Source: a virus. From it: 64,000 bases of DNA. Below are positions 2,197 through 33,260 of the stretch, piece by piece. Position 1 is the first letter of the stretch. Every line of letters begins with the position of its first letter. The position numbers were made by a program, and so were the translations under genes. Location: positions 406,014 to 470,013 of the IMG/VR virus record IMGVR_UViG_3300028558_000016. The stretch is one strand, 5' to 3'. The notes below the pieces were generated by a model. That model saw nothing but the letters and a program-made list of their open reading frames with translations, had not been told where the DNA came from and did no database searches.

Positions 2197-3180
2197 ATGA
2201 TTTTAGAAATTGCAATAGGAGATGCGTACGGACGTCCATTTGAATTCAACACACCAGAATTCATAGCCAAACACAATGATGTTCTTGGTTATAAGCATCG
2301 TATTGGTGAAGAAGAAAATGGAATAGGAATTTATACAGATGACACTCAAATGTCTATTGGCGTTGCAGAACAAATGGGTTCAGACCTTCCTGGTACTCAA
2401 GTAAGATTTGCTGCACACTTTGTCACCTCTTATAAGAGAGACCCAAGAAAAGGATATAGCAAAAGAATAACGAAAGCTCTCGAGGAATCAAAACCAAATC
2501 TTCCATTTGAATTTATATTGAAAGCTAAACAGGCAGGAATGTCGAGCAACGGAAGCGTAATGCGTTCTGTTCCTCTTGGCATGATGTCTGATCCAAAGGA
2601 AATAATGCACAGGAGCATTGTTCAAACATCAACATCACATGGACACATTGATGCCGTTAATTCTGCGGTTGTTGTTGCATTGACCGCACATTTCTTTTAT
2701 CACTTATATCCTCGATTGGAAGATTACATTCAATCGGATAAATTGATAATGTATAAGGAATGGATGAATGGACAAGTTGGTTCAGCTGTGTTTAACGATG
2801 TATATGACTCTTACATCTTTAAAAGGAAAAACGATAAGTTGCAATGTGATTCAAAAACAACTGCTTCATTGTCTATCAAATTAGCATGGGGAGTTAAGAT
2901 TAGTGGTGGAAATTTAAAGACATCCGCTAAACAAATATTAAAGAGAGCTGTTGATATTGGAGGAGACGTTGATTCGTCAGCATCGATTGCAATGGGATTG
3001 TACAGCTTAAGGACTGATGCAATAATGGATCTCCCTGATGTGTTATATGAAAATCTCGAGAATGGACCTTTTGGTAGAGACTTCTTGGTTGACATGGATG
3101 TTCAAATGCAAAAGAAATTTCCAAGAAATGTAAGGGAAGAGAAAGCTGAGTCTGAAAAATTAACCGACATAATAATATAA
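2197..3180 (+). CDS. ADP-ribosylglycohydrolase family protein (ARH/DraG-like)
   Basis: N-terminal IAIGDAYGRPFEF matches the GDAxGxPxEF hallmark of the ADP-ribosylglycohydrolase family; 327 aa fits; start overlaps the ATPase stop (ATGTAATATG). Confidence 0.7.
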   Translation: MILEIAIGDAYGRPFEFNTPEFIAKHNDVLGYKHRIGEEENGIGIYTDDTQMSIGVAEQMGSDLPGTQVRFAAHFVTSYKRDPRKGYSKRITKALEESKPNLPFEFILKAKQAGMSSNGSVMRSVPLGMMSDPKEIMHRSIVQTSTSHGHIDAVNSAVVVALTAHFFYHLYPRLEDYIQSDKLIMYKEWMNGQVGSAVFNDVYDSYIFKRKNDKLQCDSKTTASLSIKLAWGVKISGGNLKTSAKQILKRAVDIGGDVDSSASIAMGLYSLRTDAIMDLPDVLYENLENGPFGRDFLVDMDVQMQKKFPRNVREEKAESEKLTDIII

Positions 3181-7901: not shown

Positions 7902-7984
7902 ACGTCGGTGTCCGAGCGGTCAAAGGTAGCGGTCTCCAAAACCGCGGAGTTTCTCCATCGTGGGTTCGAATCCTACCCGGCGTG
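7902..7984 (+). tRNA. tRNA-?(CCA): class II (long variable arm) tRNA with anticodon CCA, decoding UGG; G73 discriminator; Ser/Tyr-like body
   Basis: Acceptor ACGTCGG/CCGGCGT (one G·U); D region TCCGAGCGGTCAAAGG typical of Ser/Tyr/Leu; anticodon arm GCGGT-CTCCAAA-ACCGC; variable-arm hairpin GGAG-TTT-CTCC; T arm GTGGG-TTCGAAT-CCTAC. Confidence 0.6.
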
Positions 7985-8005
7985 CAAAAATTAAAAGAAG
8001 AAAAC

Positions 8006-8360: not shown

Positions 8361-8450
8361 GGTGCAGGTATCCAAGGGGTTGAAGGGACCAGGCTGTGGA
8401 CCTGGTTGAAGCGAAAGCTGAACACGCGAGTTCGAATCTCGTCTTGCACC
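8361..8450 (+). tRNA. tRNA-His(GTG): tRNA-His-like (anticodon GTG) with G-1 and C73 but an unusually long variable region (about 89 nt)
   Basis: G-1 plus acceptor GTGCAGG/CTTGCAC and C73; anticodon arm CCAGG-CTGTGGA-CCTGG; extra hairpin AGC-GAAA-GCT before T arm GCGAG-TTCGAAT-CTCGT. Confidence 0.5.
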
Positions 8451-8456
8451 CACATG

Positions 8457-8539: not shown

Positions 8540-9172
8540 ATGATGAAAGAGTTAAAGTTAGATAGCACGTACAAAGGAACGAGAATTCTTGTAGGAAACG
8601 AGAAGCGTGGAATGATCAATGACATGGTCATGATTTTATTGAATCAAGGCTTCACTGAGATTTCCATTCCGATCATTCAGTTGCAAGAAACATTTGCAGG
8701 AAAGGTTGGAGAAGAAAATAACAATCTAATGTTCAATTTTAAAGATCGTGGAGAAAGGAATGTTTGCTTGGCTCCTGAATACACAGCAGTGATTCAACAA
8801 TTGGCAAAGACGAAATACAAACAAGAAAAGGACGTAAAGCTTTTCTATGTGCAAGAATGTTTTAGAGGAGAAAAGCCTCAAGCAGGAAGATACAGACAGT
8901 TTACTCAATTTGGAGTTGAAATTTTAAATCCAAAGAAAGAAACTATGGAAGGATTAAAAGAATTAGCCGTCAGCCTTTTGTCCGGTTATGATTTCAAATT
9001 CAACGTCAACAGTGATGTGACGAGAGGTTTGGATTATTACAAGGACGGAAAAGGATTTGAGATCACATGCGATGAGCTTGGATCAAGCAAACAGATTTGT
9101 GGTGGAGGTTCTTATGAAGGTGGAATGGGTTTTGCAATTGGAATTGATAGGATATTAAAAACACAGTCATGA
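8540..9172 (+). CDS. compact histidyl-tRNA synthetase-like protein (class II catalytic core, about 210 aa; no anticodon-binding domain)
   Basis: Motif 2 CFRGEKPQAGRYRQFTQFGVEIL (compare HisRS FRhERPQkGRYRQFhQ); motif 3 CGGGSYEGGMGFAIGIDRIL; N-terminal GTRILVGNE...EISIPIIQLQETF matches HisRS motif 1; about half the length of canonical HisRS. Confidence 0.75.
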   Translation: MMKELKLDSTYKGTRILVGNEKRGMINDMVMILLNQGFTEISIPIIQLQETFAGKVGEENNNLMFNFKDRGERNVCLAPEYTAVIQQLAKTKYKQEKDVKLFYVQECFRGEKPQAGRYRQFTQFGVEILNPKKETMEGLKELAVSLLSGYDFKFNVNSDVTRGLDYYKDGKGFEITCDELGSSKQICGGGSYEGGMGFAIGIDRILKTQS

Positions 9173-9900
9173 AATATTTAGTAGGAATACAGCCAACAGG
9201 AAAGATCCATATTGGAAACTATATGGGTTGCTTAGCAAAGGGGTTGAGATACCAGGAGCAGGGACACGAAGTAACGTTTCTCATTGCCAACTATCACAGC
9301 ATGACGACAGACTCATACTCTGATGTGACTGAGAAGGAATTGAGAATGCTTGGATGCAAGAACATTGTGCACCAGACTCCGGCTTACACTGAATTGTTCT
9401 TCAAGCTTTGTTGCAAGATGAACCTTGGAGTTTTGCAGAAGATGCCTCAGTACAAGGATAAAAAGGAAAGTGTTGATTTCGATATGGGGATTCTTTTATA
9501 TCCAGTTCTAATGGCAGCAGACATCATCATGAATGATCCTGATGTTGTGTTGGTTGGAAGAGACCAGGTTCCACACATGGAATTGACGAACGATATTGCA
9601 AAAAGAGTTGGAGTAACAAAGAGGTTTGAATACGAGCTTGGGGATGTTGAAAAGGTGATGTCGTTAATTGATCCAACAATGAAGATGTCAAAGTCATCTG
9701 GCGAAGCTCACGTGCTTTACCTATTTGACGAGGATTACAGTAACAAATTGAAAAGAGCAAACATGAACGGAGAAGGACTCATTAATATACAAAAGATAGG
9801 AGACTTCTTTGGAATAGAAAGAAACGATATGAATTCCATATACAAAGAAAATATAGCAATAAAACTGTCATCGGTGTTCGGCACCGTCCCGGTGACTTAA
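9169..9900 (+). CDS. compact tryptophanyl-tRNA synthetase-like protein (class Ic; 243 aa; C-terminal anticodon-binding region truncated)
   Basis: GIQPTGKIHIGNYMG matches the TrpRS N-terminus (SGxQPSGelTIGNYxG); YPVLMAADI; VGRDQVPHMELTNDIAKR; KMSKS at residues 172–176; ATGA overlap with the HisRS-like stop. Confidence 0.75.
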   Translation: MKYLVGIQPTGKIHIGNYMGCLAKGLRYQEQGHEVTFLIANYHSMTTDSYSDVTEKELRMLGCKNIVHQTPAYTELFFKLCCKMNLGVLQKMPQYKDKKESVDFDMGILLYPVLMAADIIMNDPDVVLVGRDQVPHMELTNDIAKRVGVTKRFEYELGDVEKVMSLIDPTMKMSKSSGEAHVLYLFDEDYSNKLKRANMNGEGLINIQKIGDFFGIERNDMNSIYKENIAIKLSSVFGTVPVT

Positions 9901-9922
9901 ATAAAACCGGTGCCGTCCAAAT

Positions 9923-10007
9923 GGGCGTGTACCGGTGGAATCTTATACATTCTATACCCGTAGTCTGGTCGTTGAAAACGGGGGTTCAAATCCCTCCACG
10001 CCTACCA
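9923..10007 (+). tRNA. atypical tRNA-like gene (no recognisable D arm; anticodon-like hairpin with TAT; encoded CCA)
   Basis: Acceptor GGGCGTG/CACGCCT; T arm GGGGG-TTCAAAT-CCCTC; 3' ACCA; the only 5+7+5 hairpin is GGAAT-CTTATAC-ATTCT; a 26-nt extra segment precedes the T arm; 85 nt in total. Confidence 0.4.
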
Positions 10008-10011
10008 AATT

Positions 10012-10050
10012 TAGCTTCATGAATTATGATATATAGTTCATGAAGCATTT
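10012..10050 (+). promoter_or_regulatory. 9-bp inverted repeat spanning the start codon of the downstream ORF
   Basis: CTTCATGAA-TTATGATATATAG-TTCATGAAG; the ATG of ORF 10040 lies in the 3' arm. Confidence 0.4.
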
Positions 10051-10576
10051 ACAGACATATCAGCAGCTTAACGAGAGCATGATAGATTCCAATTTGAAGA
10101 AGGAATTTGCATTTACCCTAAAACAAATGGATGAAATTTCCAATGCAATACTCAATGCAAAAGATTTCAAGAACAGGGTAAAGCTTATGAAGAAAGAAAA
10201 CCCAGATATTGGAAAAGCTATGGGAGATTACAAAGAATATCTTGATCTCGCCACCAAGGTGCAAAAAATAGTAAAACAAATTAGATCAAAAGGACTTTCT
10301 TCAGACAGAAGAAAAGCGACTAAACAATTGAGAGCCATCCAGGGGTTTTCTGGTACACTTAAAACAGTTTTCGATAATTTGAATAAGTTTGATAAAAAAA
10401 CCAAAAAGGGTTTTGAAAGCAACGAAGGAATAGCAACCATCATTGGAAATACATTAAGAAATATATTGACTGGTCAGTTCATAGTTAACATATTAAAAAC
10501 CATAAAAGGAAATTTAATGGATTCACAAGCAGAACTAACTACTGTGCAAGATGTATTTGATATAAAAGATTATTAA
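10040..10576 (+). CDS. hypothetical protein (178 aa); the N-terminus MKHLQTYQQLNE weakly resembles the MKHIKLFE leader family
   Basis: ORF with a loosely similar N-terminal motif. Confidence 0.45.
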   Translation: MKHLQTYQQLNESMIDSNLKKEFAFTLKQMDEISNAILNAKDFKNRVKLMKKENPDIGKAMGDYKEYLDLATKVQKIVKQIRSKGLSSDRRKATKQLRAIQGFSGTLKTVFDNLNKFDKKTKKGFESNEGIATIIGNTLRNILTGQFIVNILKTIKGNLMDSQAELTTVQDVFDIKDY

Positions 10577-10577
10577 T

Positions 10578-10817
10578 ATGCAAAAGATTAAGGACGCTTT
10601 AAAATGGATGGTTTGTACCAAGCTTGGATGGTTGATAATATCATTCTTATGGATTGGTGTGTTCATGATAATAAACGATAACATAGAATCTGGATGGGCC
10701 TTTTGGGTTGCAATTCCAGGATTCGCATACATCATAGGTTTATTCCTTGTCATGATGTTTTATGCGGTAAAGAATACGATAGGAGACATAAAAGAAAATA
10801 GAAATGAAAAATCTTAA
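10578..10817 (+). CDS. small membrane protein (2 predicted TM helices)
   Basis: Hydrophobic stretches WLIISFLWIGVFMII and FAYIIGLFLVMMFYAV. Confidence 0.45.
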   Translation: MQKIKDALKWMVCTKLGWLIISFLWIGVFMIINDNIESGWAFWVAIPGFAYIIGLFLVMMFYAVKNTIGDIKENRNEKS

Positions 10818-11100
10818 AAAGTTCGGTGAGTTAAACGAGGGTGGATTAGGTTATGAAAACAACAAAACGCTTCCTCCATCTGGGACACACATAAAATATG
10901 TTGCTGACACAACAGATCCAAAGACCAAAAAAATTCTCAAGATTATTTGGAATTCATGGGACGAGGCAAAAAGGAAACAGATGCTTAACAAAATGGGACA
11001 CAGCGAAAAGTATTTTGATGCTTCTTTTGAAGACCTGACAGGAGAGATCCAAGGAAAGATCGTAATGCTTGATGCCTCATTGCCAGAAAACAAGCGATAA
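10804..11100 (+). CDS. MKHIKLFE-leader family member on the + strand (N-terminus MKNLKKFGELNE)
   Basis: N-terminus matches the MKNIKxFxELNE sub-variant found in the 62–64 kb array. Confidence 0.5.
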   Translation: MKNLKKFGELNEGGLGYENNKTLPPSGTHIKYVADTTDPKTKKILKIIWNSWDEAKRKQMLNKMGHSEKYFDASFEDLTGEIQGKIVMLDASLPENKR

Positions 11101-11140
11101 AATAAATTTTTTAGTTTCAAATATAATACCTATATTTGTA
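11101..11140 (+). promoter_or_regulatory. Bacteroidota-type promoter; copy 2 of the conserved module
   Basis: AATAAATTTTTTAGTTTCAAATATAATACCTATATTTG, with a −7-like TATATTTG at 11131–11138. Confidence 0.6.
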
Positions 11141-11338
11141 AAAGATTAAGAAACAAAGAAAACCGCAAGGTATATAAGATACAAATGATGAATACAGTAA
11201 ATATTACCCGAATTATTAGGATTAGACGCAGATCAGCGACTCGCCTGGGTAGTATTATTTTATCATGAAAGTTTTAAGGATTTAGAAAACTATGAATGGA
11301 ATAAGCCCAGGACGAAAGTTCTGGGCTTTTTTCATTTT
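11141..11338 (+). ncRNA. candidate about 190-nt small RNA with a 6-codon mini-ORF; paralogous to the 7.6-kb element
   Basis: Promoter followed by AAGGTATATAAG, then a mini-ORF ATGAAAGTTTTAAGGATTTAG at 11265–11285, then terminator AGCCCAG-GACGAAAGTT-CTGGGCT followed by TTTTTT. Confidence 0.4.
11306..11338 (+). terminator. rho-independent terminator
   Basis: AGCCCAG...CTGGGCT stem followed by TTTTTT. Confidence 0.7.
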
Positions 11339-11382
11339 AAAAATATCGAAAATGAAATGGTTTAAGAAATTACAGGAAATAA

Positions 11383-11466
11383 CGGCACGTACTCAGACCA
11401 TCCTGATAAGATGGATAACTTGTAGCGGTGTTGCAAACGTGGGTTCAAATCCCTCCGTGCCGACCA
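11383..11466 (+). tRNA. atypical tRNA-like gene (anticodon-like hairpin GAT; no recognisable D arm; long extra segment; encoded CCA)
   Basis: Acceptor CGGCACG/CGTGCCG perfect; hairpin CCATC-CTGATAA-GATGG (canonical Ile-GAU loop); only 6 nt between position 9 and the hairpin; 24-nt extra segment; T arm GTGGG-TTCAAAT-CCCTC; ACCA end. Confidence 0.4.
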
Positions 11467-11737
11467 TGAAAAATATGTTGTATAAAACCGCAAGAAGGTC
11501 GTTGTCAAAAAAGACAAACAGACATTTGAGACAAACCACGTTTCTCTACGAGATGTGTGGAAATGATTTTCAAAAGCTGTTAAAGGTGGAAGAGAGATTG
11601 AAAAATTATTTTCTCTTTTATTGTCCAGGCGATCCTGAAGAAGTGGAAAAAGTTTTGGCATTGCCTGAAAAATTTTTATTGAACGATAAGAAGTGGCAAG
11701 ATGGATCAAAATATTTTTGCTTAGAAGAATTTTACGA

Positions 11738-11811
11738 CGGAATGTAGCTCAGTTGGTTAGAGCACCCGCCTGATACGCGGTAGGTCGGCAGTTCGAATCT
11801 GCCCATTCCGA
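11738..11811 (+). tRNA. tRNA-Ile(GAT): tRNA-Ile (anticodon GAT), canonical cloverleaf
   Basis: Acceptor CGGAATG/CATTCCG; D arm GCTC-AGTTGGTTA-GAGC; anticodon loop CTGATAC; T arm GGCAG-TTCGAAT-CTGCC. Confidence 0.75.
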
Positions 11812-11814
11812 CAG

Positions 11815-11960
11815 ATGTCCTTAGCTCAGTGGTTAGAGTATTATGCTGATAAAAGGTTTTAGATCTTGTAATGGAAAAATATCACGGCTCATAACCGTGG
11901 TACCAAAACAAAAATTTAAAATGCACATAAGGGTCGGTGGTTCGAATCCATCAGGACATG
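11815..11960 (+). tRNA. tRNA (Ile-GAT-like) interrupted by an about 72-nt insertion in the anticodon loop
   Basis: Acceptor ATGTCCT/AGGACAT perfect; D arm GCTC-AGTGGTTA-GAGT; anticodon-stem halves TTATG ... CATAA separated by 72 nt that begin CTGATAA and contain the hairpin CACGG-CTCATAA-CCGTG; T arm GGTGG-TTCGAAT-CCATC. Confidence 0.5.
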
Positions 11961-11969
11961 CATAAAAAT

Positions 11970-12043
11970 GCCCGCGTAGCTCAACTGGATAGAGCACCTG
12001 ACTACGGATCAGGAGGTTTAGAGTTCGAATCTCTACGTGGGTA
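11970..12043 (+). tRNA. tRNA-Arg(ACG): tRNA-Arg (anticodon ACG)
   Basis: D arm GCTC-AACTGGATA-GAGC; anticodon arm CCTGA-CTACGGA-TCAGG; T arm TAGAG-TTCGAAT-CTCTA. Confidence 0.75.
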
Positions 12044-12047
12044 CATT

Positions 12048-12121
12048 GGTTTTGTAGCTCAATTGGATAGAGCAATTCCGTCCTAAGGAAAAGGTTATAG
12101 GTTCGAGTCCTATCAAGATCA
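12048..12121 (+). tRNA. tRNA-Arg(CCT): tRNA-Arg (anticodon CCT)
   Basis: D arm GCTC-AATTGGATA-GAGC; anticodon loop GTCCTAA; T arm ATAGG-TTCGAGT-CCTAT; acceptor GGTTTTG/CAAGATC with two G·U pairs. Confidence 0.65.
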
Positions 12122-12126
12122 CAAAT

Positions 12127-12199
12127 GCCTGCGTAGCTCAGTGGACAGAGCGCCGGTCTTCGGAACCGGGCGTCGGGAGTTCGAATCTCTCCGTGGGTA
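12127..12199 (+). tRNA. tRNA-Arg(TCG): tRNA-Arg (anticodon TCG)
   Basis: D arm GCTC-AGTGGACA-GAGC; anticodon arm CCGGT-CTTCGGA-ACCGG; T arm GGGAG-TTCGAAT-CTCTC. Confidence 0.75.
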
Positions 12200-12223
12200 C
12201 TGAAGTAAAATGGAATTAAATAT

Positions 12224-12313
12224 GCCCGTGTAGCCGAGGAAGTTTTCTAAACTTTTATCCGTAATTGGAGCTGCGTCTCACGACTAATGGGGGTTCGAAT
12301 CCCTCCACGGGTA
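12224..12313 (+). tRNA. atypical tRNA-like gene (anticodon-like hairpin TCT; no recognisable D arm; 33-nt extra segment; 90 nt)
   Basis: Acceptor GCCCGTG/CACGGGT; hairpin GAAGT-TTTCTAA-ACTTT; T arm GGGGG-TTCGAAT-CCCTC; same architecture as the elements at 9923 and 11383. Confidence 0.4.
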
Positions 12314-12328
12314 CTTAAAATTAAAGTT

Positions 12329-13492
12329 ATGAAAATTGATATTGATAAAATAAAACAGATCCCCAAAGAGATTTCGGAAGAATTTGGGATGTGCGTCTAT
12401 GGACCAATCTCAGATGAGATTAAGGCATGGATGGAATTCCATGGTATGCAATCGCAAAACATGGGAAATTATACAAACATCTATACAGATAAAAACATTA
12501 TTGATCTGTTCAATAAACCAGAACCATTTGAATACATCGATGGGTTCAGTCCAAACCTAAACAAGAATCTTCACATTGGACACTTCTCAAATTTAGTTCT
12601 TGCAAAGGCTTTCGTCTCTCTTGGAATAGCAAAGAAGACTGTGGCAATATTGGGAGACACGTTAGAAGGGGATGTTTCAAAGGAAGATGCGTTGAACAAC
12701 TACAATGAGATATGTGAGAAATTCTCATACCCCGTAGATAAGATGTTCATGGCTTCTGAAATGGAATCTGATTACAACCTCGTGGATGGTGTTCATGAAT
12801 ATGAAGGAACCAAAGTGTTCTATCTTGATACGCCATTAGTTGGAATCAAAAGCGATGGGTCAACAACATATTTCTATCAGGACGTTGCATTGGCACAAAA
12901 ATTAAATGCTCCAACATTATATCTTACAGGAAGCGAACAGAACGGACATTTCAACAGCTTAAAGGAAATGTTTCCTAAAATAAAGCACATTGGACTTGGA
13001 CTTGTAAAAGCAAAAGGAGGAAAGATGTCAAGCAGACTCGGAAATGTTATTTGGATGCAAGATGTCATCGATGAAATGATGAGCAACTTTCAAGACGAAA
13101 AAGTGTGCTATAATGTTTTTGCAGGATTTATTTTGAAATCAACTCCTAAGTCTGAAAAGAACATAGACATATATCAATTGGACAATCCATTGAATTCACC
13201 TGGATTGTACTTAAGCTATACGTTAGCAAAACTAAAAAGCGCTGGAGTGAAATGTGAAGGAAAAACATTCACCTCTCAAGATCTTCAATTCAAATACATG
13301 AAGGCCTTGAACTCTCTTTCTCCAAATATTTTGCTTGAAGGTTTAATTGATCATGCAAAGAAGATAAGCGGTTTATACATCACTCACAAGATAAAAGATA
13401 ATGCGGTGAACCAGTCCATGTTTGAAATATTGGGTTCAGATTTATTATTAGGAATGAGCCTCCTGGGTTTATTTGATGTTGACAAGGTTTAA
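12329..13492 (+). CDS. compact arginyl-tRNA synthetase-like protein (class I; 388 aa versus about 570 aa canonical)
   Basis: HIGH motif SPNLNKNLHIGHFSN; ArgRS-specific KMSSRLGN in place of KMSKS (compare ArgRS kkMSTRkG) followed by ...QDVIDE; starts 16 nt after the last tRNA-like gene. Confidence 0.7.
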   Translation: MKIDIDKIKQIPKEISEEFGMCVYGPISDEIKAWMEFHGMQSQNMGNYTNIYTDKNIIDLFNKPEPFEYIDGFSPNLNKNLHIGHFSNLVLAKAFVSLGIAKKTVAILGDTLEGDVSKEDALNNYNEICEKFSYPVDKMFMASEMESDYNLVDGVHEYEGTKVFYLDTPLVGIKSDGSTTYFYQDVALAQKLNAPTLYLTGSEQNGHFNSLKEMFPKIKHIGLGLVKAKGGKMSSRLGNVIWMQDVIDEMMSNFQDEKVCYNVFAGFILKSTPKSEKNIDIYQLDNPLNSPGLYLSYTLAKLKSAGVKCEGKTFTSQDLQFKYMKALNSLSPNILLEGLIDHAKKISGLYITHKIKDNAVNQSMFEILGSDLLLGMSLLGLFDVDKV

Positions 13493-13549: not shown

Positions 13550-14506
13550 ATGGCAACCAAAACATCTAAAGCCGCAACAGGAACCGTGAAAGCACGAACA
13601 GCAGGAAGAAAAGCAACGACATCAACAAAGACACCAATGAAAGCAGAAACTACATTGGAACCAAAAAAGGCCTCGAAGATTAAAATAAGTGGAAAAGAAG
13701 TTACATTGAACGGGTATTTTAAAATTGAATTGGGAACCTTTTCGATTTTAAAGCACAACATCCGAAACAACATAAGCACTCTTTTAATAGGTCCAACAGG
13801 ACTTGGAAAAACAGATGTCGCAGTTAACATTGCGTCTGTGCTCGATGTTCCTATAACCATATTTGATATGGGAACGATGACTGACCCCATCATGGGACTT
13901 GTTGGAACTCACGTCATAGAGGTTAAAGATGGAAAAACATATTCTGAATTCAAGAAAAGCAGATTCTCTGACGTCATCCAAAAACCAGGAATAGTTTTAT
14001 TGGATGAGGTCAATCGTGCTGCATCAGCCGCTAACAACTTATTATTTCCTTGTTTAGATTTCAGAAGAGAGCTTCCAATGGAATATTCGTTTGGAGATAC
14101 TAAGCCAATTCCAATTCATCCTAAATGTGTTTTCTTTGCAACGGCAAATATAGGATCTCAGTATACCGGAACTCACAAGCTTGACAGAGCATTAATCGAT
14201 AGGTTCATGATTATTGCAGTTGATAGTCTCAACACTCAACAAATTATGTCCACGTTAGAAGTGACTCATTCTAAATTAAGTGAGACTGACAGAAAAAAGA
14301 TTGTTGACATTTACAACAAGATAAACAAAGAGCATGACGATTTCAAAATAGGTTTCAATTTGTCAATACGACATTTGAAAACTGTTGCGACACTTGTGCA
14401 AAACAAGTTCACGATATATGATGCGTATTATGCAATATGCAAAGGACTTGGTGGACCAGAAGGATTAAAAGCTATTGAATCGATCTTAAGCACCTCTAAA
14501 AAATGA
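13550..14506 (+). CDS. MoxR/CobS-like AAA+ ATPase
   Basis: Walker A LLIGPTGLGKTDVA; Walker B VLLDEVNRA (the DExNRA form typical of MoxR/CobS); K/T-rich N-terminal tail. Confidence 0.7.
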   Translation: MATKTSKAATGTVKARTAGRKATTSTKTPMKAETTLEPKKASKIKISGKEVTLNGYFKIELGTFSILKHNIRNNISTLLIGPTGLGKTDVAVNIASVLDVPITIFDMGTMTDPIMGLVGTHVIEVKDGKTYSEFKKSRFSDVIQKPGIVLLDEVNRAASAANNLLFPCLDFRRELPMEYSFGDTKPIPIHPKCVFFATANIGSQYTGTHKLDRALIDRFMIIAVDSLNTQQIMSTLEVTHSKLSETDRKKIVDIYNKINKEHDDFKIGFNLSIRHLKTVATLVQNKFTIYDAYYAICKGLGGPEGLKAIESILSTSKK

Positions 14507-16242
14507 TAGGATTTGATATTACAGGAAAGAAATCAAAAAGCGTAACTAAATGGGAAGACTCATTGTTTGGAGGCTATTACAGAACTGTAATGGATTACCC
14601 GGACGTGAAAGTTCACAGCAACGTTGATTTTGATTTTGGAACCATAGCGTATGGAAGTTACTTTTTAAAAGAGAAGATCTTGAAGATTTTCTTATCTAAG
14701 GTTAAAACACACGGTTACACTACAAAGCTTTTGGATAACTGTACTGTCGAAAGAAAACGAGATGCATGGGGTGATGAAATCACTGAGGCCACCGTAGATA
14801 ATAACAGCAAGCTCAGTACAATAAGAGCTGTGATTGCAAGAGAACCAGAGTTTGCTCCTATGTTTTCCCATTATATGAAGTTTATAATGGACACCAGAAT
14901 TTACTTTTACAAAAGCAATTCTAAAGCTCCAAGCAATGGGACTGGTTCTTCAGACGACGATTTTGAAGAATTTAAGGATGAAAACGAAAATGACGAATCA
15001 TCCGGAAAATCAGAAGAAGAAAAATCTAAAAACGGAAACTCCGGTAAAGGCAAAGAGAAAGAGAAAGAAGAAGAGAAACCAGAAGAAACCAAGGATGAAA
15101 GCTCTGGTGATGGAGAAGGAGAAGAAAAAGAGGAGCCAGAAAATTCCGAATCTGATGGTTCAAATTCTGAAGAAGAAAAGGAAGAAGAAAAAGGAGATGG
15201 AGAAGGAGAAGGAGAAGAAAAATCTCCAGAGGATAAGGCGTTGGAAGATAAATTAGAAAAAGAACTTGAGAAAAGGAAACAGGAAATAGAAGAACGAGAA
15301 CAGAAGGCAAAACAAAAACCTGTCAAAAAATTAACTCAGGCTGAAATAAATCAAATCCAAGAATCTTTCAAAAAGGCCATTCAAAGTATAGTTGAAGAGT
15401 CCATTGTTCATAGCTACATTTCAGGATTTAAAAAACCTGTTAAAGTAATTTTTGAACGACCAAATGTTAGAGACACTGAGTTTAATTACGAAGACAAAAG
15501 AATAGCCGAGAATCTCGTTAAGATGCTCGACATTTCATTTGACCCAGCGAAAGAAATAGTAAAGAACTTGCGTCTTGGCAAATTGGACATATCAAAGATT
15601 GCAGAGGTTCCAGCCGGAAATATTGCCATATACAAGCAGGATGTGGAAAATCAAACGACTAAACCATTTAGCATTGTAATATTATGTGATGAGTCAGGAA
15701 GCATGGGTTCTGGACATGAATACAAAGGACGTGGCGATAAATTGTATTCGCAATATAGAATAGTCAAACAATTGTACTTGGCATTTTCTGACATCATTCC
15801 ACAGAATAAACTCTATGTGTATGGACATTCGGGATCAGAAGAACCTGAGCTTTATGTTTATCAAGATTCTTATCGTCCAAATTTTACCAAGACGATTGAT
15901 CACATGATCCACAACCATAATCACCATTCCAATTATGATGGACCTGCAATAGAAGAAGTTTACAATCAGGTAAGAAATTCCACCGATGATAGAATAATTT
16001 TTATTTGTCTTTCTGATGGTCAACCTGCTGGAAATAATTATGGAGGTCACGATGATCAATTGAAAATGAAACAAATAATTGAAAAATGTAAGAGGGATGA
16101 ATTCGTGACTGTTGGTGTTGGAATTCAATATTTCACCGTAAAGAATCTTTATCAATACAGCACGGTGGTAACTGATCTGGATGAAATGGCTAAGAAAGTG
16201 AGTCACATAGTCAATCACGTGGTCAAAAGTGAGTTTCAATAA
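14503..16242 (+). CDS. CobT-like protein: acidic low-complexity centre plus a C-terminal VWA domain
   Basis: E/K/G-rich region EEEKEEEKGDGEGEGEEK; MIDAS motif ILCDESGSM (DxSxS); the partnership with the upstream AAA+ gene mirrors CobS/CobT and other MoxR–VWA pairs. Confidence 0.6.
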   Translation: MIGFDITGKKSKSVTKWEDSLFGGYYRTVMDYPDVKVHSNVDFDFGTIAYGSYFLKEKILKIFLSKVKTHGYTTKLLDNCTVERKRDAWGDEITEATVDNNSKLSTIRAVIAREPEFAPMFSHYMKFIMDTRIYFYKSNSKAPSNGTGSSDDDFEEFKDENENDESSGKSEEEKSKNGNSGKGKEKEKEEEKPEETKDESSGDGEGEEKEEPENSESDGSNSEEEKEEEKGDGEGEGEEKSPEDKALEDKLEKELEKRKQEIEEREQKAKQKPVKKLTQAEINQIQESFKKAIQSIVEESIVHSYISGFKKPVKVIFERPNVRDTEFNYEDKRIAENLVKMLDISFDPAKEIVKNLRLGKLDISKIAEVPAGNIAIYKQDVENQTTKPFSIVILCDESGSMGSGHEYKGRGDKLYSQYRIVKQLYLAFSDIIPQNKLYVYGHSGSEEPELYVYQDSYRPNFTKTIDHMIHNHNHHSNYDGPAIEEVYNQVRNSTDDRIIFICLSDGQPAGNNYGGHDDQLKMKQIIEKCKRDEFVTVGVGIQYFTVKNLYQYSTVVTDLDEMAKKVSHIVNHVVKSEFQ

Positions 16243-18690: not shown

Positions 18691-18983
18691 TGGAAAAATT
18701 TGCAAATAAAATAACCGAATTGCTCGTTTTAAAGAGAAAAAATAACAAAATCTTTAAAAACGTTTCAGGAATGGAATTTATTTGGGAAATGGCAGCAAAT
18801 TTTGGAATCCATAATATACAAACTGTTTCTATAATAGCAGAAAAAGATTTTATGACGCCGATGGTAGTTATAAATGGATTGGTTGTCGGAAACATATCGC
18901 GTGAAATGCTTCAGGATATTAAATCTAAAGGTTCACCGCCGGCATGTTGGAATGAGGAAATAATGGAAATAATGGTCCCTTAG
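18690..18983 (+). CDS. hypothetical protein (97 aa)
   Basis: ORF; the stop abuts the tRNA-Met. Confidence 0.4.
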   Translation: MEKFANKITELLVLKRKNNKIFKNVSGMEFIWEMAANFGIHNIQTVSIIAEKDFMTPMVVINGLVVGNISREMLQDIKSKGSPPACWNEEIMEIMVP

Positions 18984-19047
18984 CTCAGTTGGTTAGAGCG
19001 CCTGACTCATAATCAGAGGGTCGCAGGTTCAAATCCTGCAGGGACCA
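18974..19047 (+). tRNA. tRNA-Met(CAT): tRNA-Met (anticodon CAT; could also be an Ile2/lysidine type)
   Basis: Acceptor GGTCCCT/AGGGACC perfect; D arm GCTC-AGTTGGTTA-GAGC; anticodon loop CTCATAA; T arm GCAGG-TTCAAAT-CCTGC. Confidence 0.75.
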
Positions 19048-19048
19048 C

Positions 19049-30743: not shown

Positions 30744-33260
30744 ATGATGACTCCAACTGAAAGAATCGGCGACCTCGTGTTGCCACAGGGAACTTACGTT
30801 CTCATTCAGGATGGATCAAACGGTCAGGTCGATGTCATTGTTGGTCCAAACAAGACTGCAATGCAGGAAACAGACAAACCTGTGATCTATAAACCTGAAA
30901 CTGGTCGGTTTGAAAAAATCTCGAATGCGCTTGATGCGGTTCAGAGTTTTTCCACCGCAAACGAAGGACAGTACATCGTCCTTCATAATCCTTCCAAAGG
31001 AAACAAAGAACACCCTAACAAGGGAAGAAACACCGAGTCCACAGAATTAAGCATTGGAAATAAGATCAACATCACCGGTCCACAATCTTTCGCTTTATTT
31101 CCTGGACAACACGCGCAAATAATCGACGGACACCAACTCAAATCAAACGAATACTTGGTTGTGAGAGTGTACAACGAGGAATCTGCAAAAGAAAACATCG
31201 CAAAAGCGATAGTTAAAGCGGCAGAAGGCGCTGAGAAAAAGAAAAGCGAAATCAAAAAGGAAGATCTTGTTAATGGAAAATTGTTCATTATCAAAGGTAC
31301 TGAGATTTCGTTCTACATTCCTCCAACCGGTATTGAAGTAGTGAAAGAGCCAACAAGCAATTCTTACGTAAGGAAAGCTGTTACTCTTGAAAGACTTGAG
31401 TATTGCATTCTTCTTGAGCAAAATGGAAACAAACGTTACGTAAAAGGTCCTGATGTTGTGTTTCCTGAACCAACAGAAGAATTCATAGGACAAAACGGAA
31501 ACAACAAGTTCAGAGCTCTTGAATTAAACGATAACATGGGTATTTATATCAAGGTTATTGCGGACTACAAAGATGGAGACAATGAACACAAAGCAGGTGA
31601 TGAAATGTTCATCACCGGAAAAGAACAAAAAATTTATTACCCACAGCCTGAACATGCCATCATTAAATATGGCGATCAAATAATCCATTATGCAATTGCA
31701 ATTCCTTCCGGAGAAGGTCGTTACATTCTTAACAAGAATAACGGAGCAGTTGAAATGGTTAAAGGTCCAAAAATGTTCTTGCCAGATCCACGTAAGGAAG
31801 TTGTTGTTAAGAGAATTCTTGATGACAAGACTGTGGAATTGTTCTATCCTGGAAATTCCGAAGCGGTGGAATACAACCGCGAACTTCAAGGAGTAATGGA
31901 CACTCTTGAAGAAGATGAAAACTCACGCTCATTCTCAAATTCCGGAAGATACTTCTCTGCTGGAAATATGGGAGGAAGCAACAGAAGCCACGCACAATTA
32001 AATGAGTTCCTCGATCTTTCTGCACAAGGAAGCTTAGGATTAGAAGGTCCTTTAGGAAACTCAACACTTTCGAGATCTAAATCTGCTTCTTCGTCCACTA
32101 TGAAGCGTTCAACCAAACACACCAAACCAAGAACCATCACCCTTGATACTAAATATGAGGGAGTTGTTTCCATGAACGTTTGGCCTGGTTACGCTATACA
32201 AGTGATTAAGAAGAATGGAGAACGCGAAGTAGTGTATGGCCCTAAGGTCGTATTGCTTGAATACGATGAGACGTTAGAAGTTCTTGAGCTTTCTACTGGA
32301 AAACCTAAGAGTGATGGAAACCTCATCAAAACAGTTTACCTGCAAACAAACAACAACATTGTTTCAGACATCATCGAGGTTGAGACCAAGGATTCTGTCA
32401 CAGTGTCTATAAGATTGTCTTACAGAGTTAACTTCAAAGAAGACGATGCGAAAAAATGGTTTACCGTATCCAACTACGTGAAGCTTCTAACACAACACCT
32501 GCGTTCAGTTGTAAGAAACAGCGTGAAGAAGAACACCATCGAAGAATTCAACAACGCGGCAACAGACATCATACGTAACATAATTCTCGGAGAACCAAAA
32601 GATGGTAAGCGCGAAGGAAAATACTTCGAGGAAAATGGAATGAATGTGTATGACGTTGAAGTATTAAACATCAAAATCGGTGACGATAGAATCGCATCGA
32701 TGTTAAAAGATGCTCAGTACAACACCGTTGAAAAGAATCTTCTCATCGCAAAAGAAAAGAAGAACCTGGAGTACGTTAAGGAAACAGAGGGATTCAAAAG
32801 AGAGAGGATCAAAGAGGAAGCAAGTACGGAAGAACAACGTATGGTAAGCTTACTCGAAAAAATACAGTCCGATGCAAAAGCTGAACTTGAGAAATTAAAG
32901 AACGAAGAAGCTGCACAAGCTTCTAAGAGCAAAATCGCCGATGATGTTCTCGAAAGAGAAAGAAAATCGAAAGAAATGATCTTGAATTTCTTAAGCAAAG
33001 AAGCTGACATCGAGATTAAGAAAGTGAAAGAGAAGATGGAAGCAGTAACTCCAGGACTTATTGAAGCGATCACATCGCTTGGTACAGTTTCGTTATCAGA
33101 AATTCTTGCTAAGAACCTCAGAGCTCAAACGAGCGGATTGCATGGAATATTCCCTGAAGGCGGAATGGATGGATTAATGCACACCATCAAAGGAACAGCT
33201 CTTGAAAAACAATTTACTGACTTGCTTAACAAGCATGCAAAAACTCCAATAACCAACTAA
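30744..33260 (+). CDS. major vault protein (MVP) homologue, 838 aa
   Basis: N-terminus PQGTYVLIQDGSNGQVDVIVGPNKTAMQETDKPV matches MVP [33 protein letters not shown]; MVP-repeat-like GDEMFITGKEQKIYYP (compare GDEWLFEGPGTYIP); shoulder-domain block DIIEVETKDSVTVSIRLSYRVNF...FTVSNYVKLLTQHLRSVVRNSV matches MVP [23 protein letters not shown]...; Glu/Lys-rich coiled coil near the C-terminus. Confidence 0.75.
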   Translation: MMTPTERIGDLVLPQGTYVLIQDGSNGQVDVIVGPNKTAMQETDKPVIYKPETGRFEKISNALDAVQSFSTANEGQYIVLHNPSKGNKEHPNKGRNTESTELSIGNKINITGPQSFALFPGQHAQIIDGHQLKSNEYLVVRVYNEESAKENIAKAIVKAAEGAEKKKSEIKKEDLVNGKLFIIKGTEISFYIPPTGIEVVKEPTSNSYVRKAVTLERLEYCILLEQNGNKRYVKGPDVVFPEPTEEFIGQNGNNKFRALELNDNMGIYIKVIADYKDGDNEHKAGDEMFITGKEQKIYYPQPEHAIIKYGDQIIHYAIAIPSGEGRYILNKNNGAVEMVKGPKMFLPDPRKEVVVKRILDDKTVELFYPGNSEAVEYNRELQGVMDTLEEDENSRSFSNSGRYFSAGNMGGSNRSHAQLNEFLDLSAQGSLGLEGPLGNSTLSRSKSASSSTMKRSTKHTKPRTITLDTKYEGVVSMNVWPGYAIQVIKKNGEREVVYGPKVVLLEYDETLEVLELSTGKPKSDGNLIKTVYLQTNNNIVSDIIEVETKDSVTVSIRLSYRVNFKEDDAKKWFTVSNYVKLLTQHLRSVVRNSVKKNTIEEFNNAATDIIRNIILGEPKDGKREGKYFEENGMNVYDVEVLNIKIGDDRIASMLKDAQYNTVEKNLLIAKEKKNLEYVKETEGFKRERIKEEASTEEQRMVSLLEKIQSDAKAELEKLKNEEAAQASKSKIADDVLERERKSKEMILNFLSKEADIEIKKVKEKMEAVTPGLIEAITSLGTVSLSEILAKNLRAQTSGLHGIFPEGGMDGLMHTIKGTALEKQFTDLLNKHAKTPITN

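Follow-up and report, generated by a model that had tools for sequence, protein, structure and literature searches.

The 64,000-nt window that we analyzed (positions 406,014 to 470,013 of IMG/VR record IMGVR_UViG_3300028558_000016) is part of a 482-kb metagenomic phage contig. (The window carries several marks of a bacterial virus: a sigma-70-type factor, peptidoglycan hydrolases, and intrinsic bacterial-type terminators.) At 11815-11960 of the window, on the + strand, lies a tRNA gene whose anticodon loop is interrupted by a 73-nt insert. The gene sits in an array of tRNA genes that starts after a strong terminator (11303-11328), with a canonical tRNA-Ile(GAU) 3 nt upstream and a tRNA-Arg(ACG) 9 nt downstream. 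We conclude that the insert-bearing gene is a selected accessory gene of a huge-phage lineage, which encodes either a tRNA-based small RNA of a new type or a tRNA with a new kind of intron. The parts of the gene and its two immediate neighbors are:

11815-11851, + strand: 5' part of the tRNA, positions 1-37 (from the Rfam alignment, the intron mode of ARAGORN, and the sequence)
11815-11821, + strand: acceptor stem, 5' strand
11824-11839, + strand: D arm
11841-11845, + strand: 5' half of the outer anticodon stem, TTATG
11846-11851, + strand: loop CTGATA
11852-11924, or 11853-11925 if shifted, + strand: 73-nt insert, intron or stalk (from the Rfam alignment and the intron mode of ARAGORN)
11856-11864 with 11914-11922, + strand: stalk helix of 9 bp (minimum free energy and centroid folds)
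11866-11869 with 11908-11911, + strand: stalk helix of 4 bp (same folds)
11872-11874 with 11903-11905, + strand: stalk helix of 3 bp (same folds), with A-rich bulges that include AAAAA at 11875-11879
11880-11902, + strand: tip hairpin, an 8-bp stem and the 7-nt loop CTCATAA (11888-11894)
11925-11960, + strand: 3' part of the tRNA (from the Rfam alignment and the sequence)
11925, + strand: A38
11926-11930, + strand: 3' half of the outer anticodon stem, CATAA
11931-11935, + strand: variable loop GGGTC
11936-11952, + strand: T arm
11953-11959, + strand: acceptor stem, 3' strand
11960, + strand: discriminator G (CCA is not encoded)
11738-11811, + strand: canonical tRNA-Ile(GAU) (ARAGORN and Rfam, 70.4 bits)
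11970-12043, + strand: tRNA-Arg(ACG)

The tRNA model of Rfam (RF00005) matches 11815-11960 at 48.7 bits, as compared to a gathering score of 29 (E = 2.3e-7 for the whole window), and model positions 1-71 are all aligned, which gives the cloverleaf of a tRNA. The alignment is interrupted at just one place by a large insertion, which follows CUGAUA and falls between tRNA positions 37 and 38. ARAGORN missed the gene in its default mode; in its intron mode, it reported tRNA-Ile(gat) with intron i(38,73). In order, the gene reads ATGTCCT TA GCTC AGTGGTTA GAGT A TTATG CTGATA (73 nt) A CATAA GGGTC GGTGG TTCGAAT CCATC AGGACAT G. The acceptor stem (ATGTCCT/AGGACAT) has 7 of 7 pairs, and the D arm (GCTC/GAGT), the T arm (GGTGG TTCGAAT CCATC), and the outer anticodon stem (TTATG/CATAA) are all present. 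The bases for the tertiary contacts of the elbow are also intact in the sequence (U8, A14, G15, G18, G19, A21, C48, G53, U54, U55, C56, A58, and C61). The two halves of the anticodon stem are 80 nt apart, which is a 7-nt loop plus the 73-nt insert, and the primary transcript has no continuous 5-bp anticodon stem with a 7-nt loop; this is restored only by removing the 73 nt. A repeated A leaves the boundary ambiguous by one base, so that the insert could equally be placed after position 37 or after position 38 (38/39). If the insert were removed, the junction would be ...UUAUGCUGAUA joined to ACAUAAGGGUC..., and the spliced species would be ~73-76 nt long, versus ~146 nt for the unspliced one. 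The corresponding junction k-mers are TATTATGCTGATAACATAAGGGTCGG for the spliced form and GCTGATAAAAGGTTTTAG and TTTAAAATGCACATAAGG for the unspliced form.

The insert is predicted to fold, either alone or within the pre-tRNA, as one interrupted rod of ~24 bp, with helices of 9, 4, 3, and 8 bp and A-rich bulges between them. The rod is plain, with no junction or pseudoknot. The predicted fold of the whole pre-tRNA has a free energy of -36 kcal/mol (z = -2.8 relative to shuffles). Between the outer anticodon stem and the rod there are 10 unpaired bases on the 5' side (C32-G41) and three (GCA) on the 3' side. At the tip of the rod, the 17-mer CACGG CTCATAA CCGTG (11883-11899) has the same sequence as the anticodon arm of numerous CAU tRNAs (Met/fMet/Ile2-type). 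When we looked for this 17-mer in IMG/VR, 19 of the 20 matches were inside tRNA genes and one was not. By a rough estimate from the sequence, the chance that 73 nt would contain a CUCAUAA loop closed by five pairs is ~3e-5. An earlier note on this stretch had described a tRNA gene with a good cloverleaf, an insert of about 72 nt in the anticodon loop, and a 5+7+5 hairpin with the loop CTCATAA: the cloverleaf is borne out by the Rfam match and the presence of all arms, the location of the insert was right and its size becomes 73 nt, and the hairpin is indeed found at 11883-11899 and extends to 8 bp.

Three other features of the insert deserve mention. Directly 3' of the tip hairpin is a CCA (11903-11905), and a 7-bp stem followed by A and CCA resembles a microhelix; the resemblance is unproven, and in the predicted fold that CCA pairs within the rod. 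The insert also contains a 7-codon mini-ORF (open reading frame), ATGGAAAAATATCACGGCTCATAA, which we judged to be coincidental. Finally, we considered whether the tip hairpin is a terminator on the minus strand and rejected this, as no gene on the minus strand would need one, and both the stem and the T-run are weak.

The insert-bearing gene is present in four independent assemblies: the window, L157 (which is identical and comes from a second ENA sample), L022 (from an NCBI assembly), and L155 (from a Logan assembly). This recurrence excludes an assembly artefact. The four assemblies represent three sequence variants of the gene. Relative to the window, 69-70 of the 73 bases of the insert are identical in L022 and L155, and the pairwise differences among the three variants are 3, 4, and 2 in 73 nt (95-96% identity). 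In contrast, synonymous third positions of the adjacent upstream ORF are just 57-72% identical between the variants, and 4-fold sites of a nearby ArgRS-like gene are 61% identical. If the 73 sites were neutral, the binomial probability of so few changes would be 7e-13 for the window versus L155 and 2e-7 for the window versus L022. The neighboring neutral sites have diverged by 30-40%, while the insert has hardly changed. These comparisons indicate that purifying selection acts on the insert no less strongly than on the exons. Furthermore, the short spacers that flank the gene differ between the variants, so the block was not simply transferred recently.

The few differences are also not spread evenly. 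Outside of the insert, the three variants differ by an extra U in the D loop, at T-loop position 59, and at the discriminator (G, G, and U). Within the insert, they differ at four positions: a bulge base that has three states (C/G/U), one adjacent stalk base (position 52, which is U in the other variants and C in L155, so that one pair is lost or shifted), and two stem bases. The two stem-base changes keep the pairing (G-C to G.U and U.G to U-A), and they are the only stem changes in the tip hairpin. Apart from the one bulge base, the single-stranded segments of the insert are invariant. Across the three variants, 99.3% of the cells in the stalk pairing are paired, versus 38-51% in slid controls.

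The gene is not found in all relatives of this phage. In the next closest lineage (L148-L154, with an upstream ORF that is 79% identical), only 11 nt separate tRNA-Ile(GAU) from tRNA-Arg(ACG) and nothing of the gene is seen, and in L146, the site between these two tRNAs is filled by an unrelated 128-nt spacer. Thus, the insert-bearing gene appears to be an accessory cassette at a variable site and to be dispensable in relatives. We found no intron-less allele or more distant homologue in IMG/VR or in the GTDB genomes. A peptide-pattern scan of IMG/VR that was built from a single protein found no close relative of the adjacent ArgRS-like gene; an alignment-based scan found relatives of it only at 43-56% identity, and the insert-bearing gene was in none of these. 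An exact-pattern scan of the GTDB genomes for the stalk of the insert gave no match, nor did exon patterns in IMG/VR.

The variability of the site bears on whether the insert might be a functionless scar, or the gene a decaying pseudogene, whose conserved look reflects very recent divergence or recombination. The gene is dispensable, the content of the site is variable (L022 even has an extra 233-nt element), and the discriminator base varies, as one might expect of a pseudogene. But the insert is much more conserved than neighboring synonymous sites, which implies that it is under selection and is neither a scar nor a pseudogene. Recent transfer is at odds with the divergence of the immediate flanking spacers, and the substitutions fall outside of the unpaired segments and preserve pairing in the tip hairpin. 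Nor is the insert a repeated mobile element, such as a miniature inverted-repeat transposable element (MITE): searches with blastn in the window and in ~1 Mb of related loci found only the orthologous copies. We consider a scar or pseudogene to be highly improbable.

The extra element in L022 (4227-4459) is tRNA-like, lies between tRNA-Ile and the insert-bearing tRNA, and has no counterpart in the window. Its recognizable parts are an acceptor-like stem (TACCGAG/CTCGGTA), a D-like arm, which is short, and the same T arm as in tRNA-His; the ~160 nt in between could not be assigned. The element has no match in Rfam, and its fold is no better than that of shuffles (z = 0.3).

From its sequence, the insert appears to fit no known intron type or RNA family. 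Group I introns are roughly 200 nt or more, and 73 nt is too short for one. There was no match to Intron_gpI at E <= 1 on either strand of 9800-12400. The boundary bases are also wrong: the junctions are ...GAUA/AAAGG...AUGC/ACAUAA, or the same shifted by one base, so the exon ends in A and the insert ends in C (or A and A), while in group I introns the 5' exon ends in U and the intron ends in G (PMC13011429). Furthermore, a survey that covered 4,934 bacterial genomes reported group I introns at almost all positions of the anticodon loop, with 37/38 as the exception (PMC13011429). We rejected a group I or group II intron on the basis of length, boundary bases, and the lack of an Rfam match.

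An undescribed class of miniature ribozyme, either self-splicing or self-cleaving, would account for the high conservation of the insert, including its unpaired bases, as this is how ribozyme cores evolve, and small ribozymes of similar size exist. However, with an E threshold of 1, a cmscan search of both strands against Rfam found no known ribozyme or intron, the insert is predicted to fold as a plain interrupted hairpin, and the boundary bases break the group I rules. We give this idea very little credence. The same search found no vault RNA and, at the site of the gene, no transfer-messenger RNA (tmRNA). ARAGORN also finds no tmRNA at this site, and base pair 3-70 is G-C and not G.U, so we rejected a tmRNA. 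Matches to the bacterial Y RNA YrlA were weak (21.8 and 19.5 bits, versus a threshold of 69) and were driven by the ordinary D and T arms. Two ideas that came from nearby proteins were also set aside: a vault RNA, in view of the vault-protein-like gene at 30744-33260, has no match in the tRNA region; and for a Ro (TROVE)-Y RNA system, the neighboring 579-aa VWA protein is CobT-like and has no TROVE signal.

For introns of the bulge-helix-bulge (BHB) type, which have two 3-nt bulges separated by a 4-bp helix, we enumerated all 4-bp central helices, and none was compatible with both the cloverleaf and the junctions. There is a 3-nt bulge at the 3' junction only (GCA, between two helices). A Pfam scan of 103 ORFs from the window (83 ORFs of ~90 aa or more in bulk and 20 individually), which is 64 of the contig's 482 kb (13%), did not find any RNA ligase, RtcB, EndA (splicing endonuclease), or TilS domains. 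Our search of the literature, which was incomplete in coverage, found no description of short non-group-I introns in phage tRNAs.

These results also settle most of what the earlier note had offered by way of explanation. Its remark that the insert is far too short for a bacterial group I intron holds, given the 73 nt and the failure to match the Intron_gpI model, and the BHB-like motif that it proposed to look for is absent by helix enumeration. A permuted tRNA (or a split one) is unsupported, as the exons are collinear and the cloverleaf is ordinary, and an insertion scar is contradicted by the strong purifying selection on the insert. A nested tRNA is right only in a weak sense: the insert contains a copy of an anticodon arm but has no acceptor stem or T arm. 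The insert may be a miniature intron; it has no BHB, and our scan of the window gave no splicing enzyme.

If the insert is removed, the loop becomes CUGAUAA, with U33, A37, A38, and a canonical 5-bp stem, and both this loop and its anticodon, GAU, fit tRNA-Ile(GAU). The discriminator of the three variants (G, G, and U) differs from the A that is usual for tRNA-Ile. Comparing the gene to E. coli genomes and annotated phages with BLAST was uninformative about the isotype, with a mixture of best matches (Val, Arg, Lys, Asn, and Met). We also compared the gene without its anticodon arm to 200+ tRNAs from related huge-phage loci. The best match for the body was an Ile2-type CAU tRNA, with a score of 34, versus 23 for the neighboring tRNA-Ile(GAU); the top matches also included further CAU tRNAs and several tRNA-Arg(UCU). 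In addition, the outer loop (CUGAUAA) is one base away from the Ile2 loop (CUCAUAA), and the inner loop, at the tip, is CUCAUAA. The body thus appears to be closest to these phages' Ile2-type (CAU) tRNAs.

Other viral tRNAs also have short inserts in the anticodon loop. We scanned IMG/VR with a pattern, applied a strict cloverleaf filter, and obtained further tRNAs with anticodon-loop inserts of 35-84 nt, several of which were confirmed by Rfam at 45-60 bits. In four of these, the insert is a nested mini-tRNA, in which the ends of the insert form a 7-bp acceptor-like stem and are accompanied by a T-arm-like hairpin, a discriminator, and CCA:

L194, 812-928, - strand: tRNA with a nested mini-tRNA insert (parser, 7/7 stem pairs)
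L204, 5279-5402, - strand: tRNA with a nested mini-tRNA insert (parser, 7/7 stem pairs)
L204, 4216-4366, - strand: tRNA with a nested mini-tRNA insert (parser, 7/7 stem pairs)
L267, 717-856, - strand: tRNA with a nested mini-tRNA insert (parser, 7/7 stem pairs)

Exact deletion of the nested mini-tRNA restores the 7-nt loops CUUUUAA or CUUCUAA. This layout suggests excision at tRNA-type processing sites, followed by ligation. We did not find any description of such inserts in the literature that we searched. The parser for nested mini-tRNAs with CCA, which gave 7/7 for all four of these cases, returned nothing for the gene in the window. A fifth case is L103 (738-912), from the huge-phage group, where a tRNA-Ile2 (CAU) has an insert of ~100 nt after position 36. 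The insert contains a degenerate tRNA (775-855, Rfam 26.4 bits), and L111 has an uninterrupted orthologue of this tRNA-Ile2 (2969-3043). Together, the nested inserts and L103 suggest that some phages can excise short non-group-I inserts and reseal the tRNA.

The scans turned up other arrangements as well. L183, L192, L250, L251, and L254 (and also L241, L248, and L255) have tRNAs with anticodon-loop inserts of 50-60 nt, and a hairpin with the motif ACAGC(A/G)A after it is common to several of these inserts. The insert seems to lie ahead of the 7-nt loop, at position 31/32, in L241, L255, and L192. (IMG/VR also includes contigs of eukaryotic giant viruses.) In six other IMG/VR loci (L282, L313, L331, L333, L366, and L390), an isolated T arm and acceptor 3' strand, with no matching 5' half nearby, lie 2-20 nt downstream of a complete CAU tRNA that often ends in CCA. 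These units may be remnants of attachment sites or another kind of composite tRNA gene. The viral contig of L267 also encodes a RAGATH-33 RNA (1933-2061 on the - strand, 126.8 bits).

It is possible, and in our judgment rather unlikely, that the insert in the window is a new intron that is neither group I nor BHB. The stalk would be cut by a protein endonuclease of the phage or the host, which might be guided by the stalk or its tip, and the halves would be sealed by an RNA ligase of the RtcB or Rnl type to give a 73-nt tRNA-Ile(GAU). The excised stalk might be a second functional RNA. At the 3' junction, two helices flank a 3-nt bulge (GCA), and position 37/38 is the canonical site of protein-spliced introns, but the BHB motif is absent. 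Ligases that seal anticodon loops are often carried by jumbo phages (PMC7824862), but we found no ligase or endonuclease domain in the 64-kb window. Exact removal of the 73 nt would yield a perfect cloverleaf with the loop CUGAUAA, but the product would be redundant with the tRNA-Ile(GAU) that lies 3 nt upstream, and it would have a discriminator that is G or U, and varies, instead of the usual A. The inserts in other viral tRNAs, including the four whose exact removal restores perfect loops and the L103 tRNA-Ile2 insert with its intron-less counterpart in L111, lend this idea some weight, but the architecture of the window insert is unlike that of the nested mini-tRNA inserts that end in CCA. 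A discarded intron would also not be expected to be conserved along its full length, as the insert is, unless it had a function of its own. Moreover, no such pathway is known in bacteria or their viruses. We regard as similarly doubtful the broader form of this idea, in which the stalk is a short, structured, conserved, protein-removed intron of a new kind and belongs to a wider, unrecognised set of phage anticodon-loop inserts.

Our preferred reading, which we hold with somewhat less than even confidence, is that the gene encodes an unspliced, tRNA-scaffolded stalk RNA that displays a mimic of a CAU anticodon arm. A retained and functional insert was not among the explanations listed previously, and the pattern of conservation favours it. 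First, the unpaired bases of the insert are kept, which a discarded intron would not do. Second, splicing would duplicate the tRNA-Ile(GAU) just upstream. Third, the variation of the discriminator (G/G/U) would be unusual for a tRNA that is charged. Fourth, the known signatures of splicing are absent.

If the insert is retained, the gene would probably be transcribed together with the surrounding tRNA array, with spacers of 3 and 9 nt, and the ends of the RNA would be formed as in any tRNA, by RNase P, 3' trimming, and CCA addition. The acceptor, D, and T parts would form a normal tRNA elbow, which would provide for processing and stability. The interrupted helix of ~24 bp would then hold the CUCAUAA stem-loop roughly 65 Angstrom further out than in a tRNA. 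Such an RNA would be unable to decode on the ribosome, but proteins that recognize the CAU anticodon arm, or the stalk, could bind it nonetheless. It might act as a decoy or a handle, with an anticodon-loop nuclease as a target or a tRNA-modifying or tRNA-charging enzyme as a partner, for instance. A decoy or handle role of this sort, in a tRNA-centred conflict, is plausible. Countering anticodon nucleases is something in which jumbo phages invest heavily (PMC7824862).

Several observations weigh against the retained stalk RNA. To our knowledge, all anticodon-loop inserts in otherwise perfect tRNA genes are introns that are removed. In this gene, too, removing exactly 73 nt restores the canonical 5-bp stem and the loop CUGAUAA, and other phage tRNAs in IMG/VR have short inserts whose exact removal restores perfect loops, which makes some phage splicing route plausible. 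Also, tRNA-sealing ligases are common in jumbo phages (PMC7824862), and our scan for enzymes covers 64 of the 482 kb. Finally, there are no compensatory double changes among the variants, of which there are only three, so that covariation speaks neither for nor against the fold; the structure of the stalk rests on conservation and thermodynamics, not on covariation.

It is useful to compare the gene to known systems. The group I introns of bacterial tRNAs (in tRNA-Leu(UAA), tRNA-fMet, tRNA-Ile(CAU), and tRNA-Arg(CCU)) also interrupt the anticodon loop of a tRNA with a normal exon cloverleaf, and as here, tRNAs of the Ile family are a recurrent host; the insert in the window differs from them in its length of 73 nt, its failure to match Intron_gpI, the A at the end of the exon, the C or A at the end of the insert, and its location at position 37/38. 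Introns of the BHB type in archaea and eukaryotes, which are removed by the splicing endonuclease together with RtcB or Trl1, share with the insert the position 37/38, the short length, and a 3-nt bulge at the 3' junction. In contrast to those introns, the insert has no BHB or relaxed BHB, its host is a bacterial virus, no endonuclease was found in the window, and it is conserved over its full length. (Some tRNA introns do contain functional RNAs: examples are the box C/D RNA in archaeal pre-tRNA-Trp and the tricRNAs, or tRNA intronic circular RNAs, of metazoans.) The nested mini-tRNA inserts with CCA from L194, L204, and L267, to which the L103 insert is related, are likewise short, unlike group I introns, and built with tRNA-like parts; however, the insert in the window has a copy of an anticodon arm and not a T arm, it ends in UGCA, and 3-4 unpaired bases precede its basal helix.

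For a retained RNA, the T4 cluster offers something of a precedent. Phage T4 makes two stable, partly tRNA-like RNAs of unknown function, species 1 and 2 (rnaC and rnaD, 139 and 119 nt), from its tRNA cluster, and the array in the window holds other conserved non-canonical tRNA-like RNAs. T4 rnaC lacks a full cloverleaf and has no insert in an anticodon loop, although it does have a T arm and an acceptor-like end. We fetched and folded the T4 species as potential counterparts and rejected them, as only location and size are shared with the gene in the window. Both tmRNA and YrlA have a tRNA-like elbow in common with the gene, and the topology of YrlA is permuted. The closest design is artificial: in engineered tRNA scaffold RNAs, the elbow of a tRNA serves as a module for processing and stability, and a foreign helix is grafted at the anticodon arm. 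This is the same design as we propose here. We know of no natural RNA of exactly this design.

The rest of the neighborhood is also rich in unusual tRNA-related genes. None of the tRNAs of the Ile-Arg array (11738-12200) has an encoded CCA. The phage uses the AUA codon heavily (25.8 per 1000 codons), and an intact Ile2-type CAU tRNA is encoded at 18974-19048. Reduced HisRS-, TrpRS-, and ArgRS-like genes, all of them much shortened, adjoin their cognate tRNAs:

8540-9172: HisRS-like protein, 210 aa
9169-9900: TrpRS-like protein, 243 aa
12329-13492: ArgRS-like protein, 387 aa

The ArgRS-like protein belongs to a large family that is found on phage contigs of up to 726 kb. The tRNA-Trp (84 nt, 7902-7985) and one of the two tRNA-His (90 nt, 8362-8451) have long variable arms, which is unusual for these isotypes, and together with the shortened synthetases, they may form a phage-specific set of synthetase/tRNA pairs.

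Three conserved tRNA-like RNAs that lack a D arm are also found in this region (Rfam tRNA, 33.8-37.4 bits), with anticodon stems of 6-7 bp and long variable arms:

9923-10004: D-arm-less tRNA-like RNA, loop CUUAUAC (UAU)
11383-11463: D-arm-less tRNA-like RNA, loop CUGAUAA (GAU)
12224-12313: D-arm-less tRNA-like RNA, loop UUUCUAA (UCU)

The UAU RNA occupies the site that holds a canonical tRNA-Ile(UAU) in the relative L148. In the GAU RNA, stem changes in L146 preserve the pairing. The UCU RNA lies upstream of the ArgRS-like gene, with 15 nt between its end and the start of the gene, and hardly differs in relatives at 71% protein identity; it might mimic an operator or be the partner of an ArgRS without the D-loop-binding N-terminal domain. 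The stop codon of a 93-aa ORF (11466-11747) overlaps the first 10 nt of tRNA-Ile(GAU). The automatic call for this ORF, of 131 aa, starts inside a D-arm-less tRNA-like RNA and is probably too long.

Farther away, an 838-aa protein (30744-33260) has the shoulder and repeat domains of the major vault protein (E = 1e-27), which is unusual in a phage. An ADP-ribosylglycohydrolase is encoded at 2197-3180 and a MoxR/VWA (CobS/CobT-like) pair at 13550-16242. Bulk Pfam scans of the first 37 kb and of 37-64 kb, in which the ORFs were not placed individually, also found ribosomal L7/L12 C-terminal, T5orf172/MUG113 (GIY-YIG-like), NUDIX, and CoaE domains, a cytidine/deoxycytidylate-type deaminase with APOBEC-like matches, a sigma-70 factor, and a PD-(D/E)XK nuclease.

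In summary, the feature is real, under selection, and unusual: it is a new variant among tRNA-derived genes and, if it is spliced, a new intron class for the bacterial world. As far as we know, the accepted view is that the tRNA genes of bacteria and phages have self-splicing group I introns and, very rarely, group II introns as their only interruptions. Removal of the insert by proteins would be a new splicing route and the first case in the bacterial world of tRNA splicing that depends on proteins. With the insert retained, the gene would be a natural example of a tRNA that serves as a scaffold to display another RNA module, and the choice of an exact CAU anticodon arm as that module would point to tRNA-centred conflict or regulation in huge phages, which in this group also carry reduced aminoacyl-tRNA synthetases and several non-canonical tRNAs. 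Either way, default tRNA finders skip such genes, and hence the tRNA repertoires of phages are under-counted.

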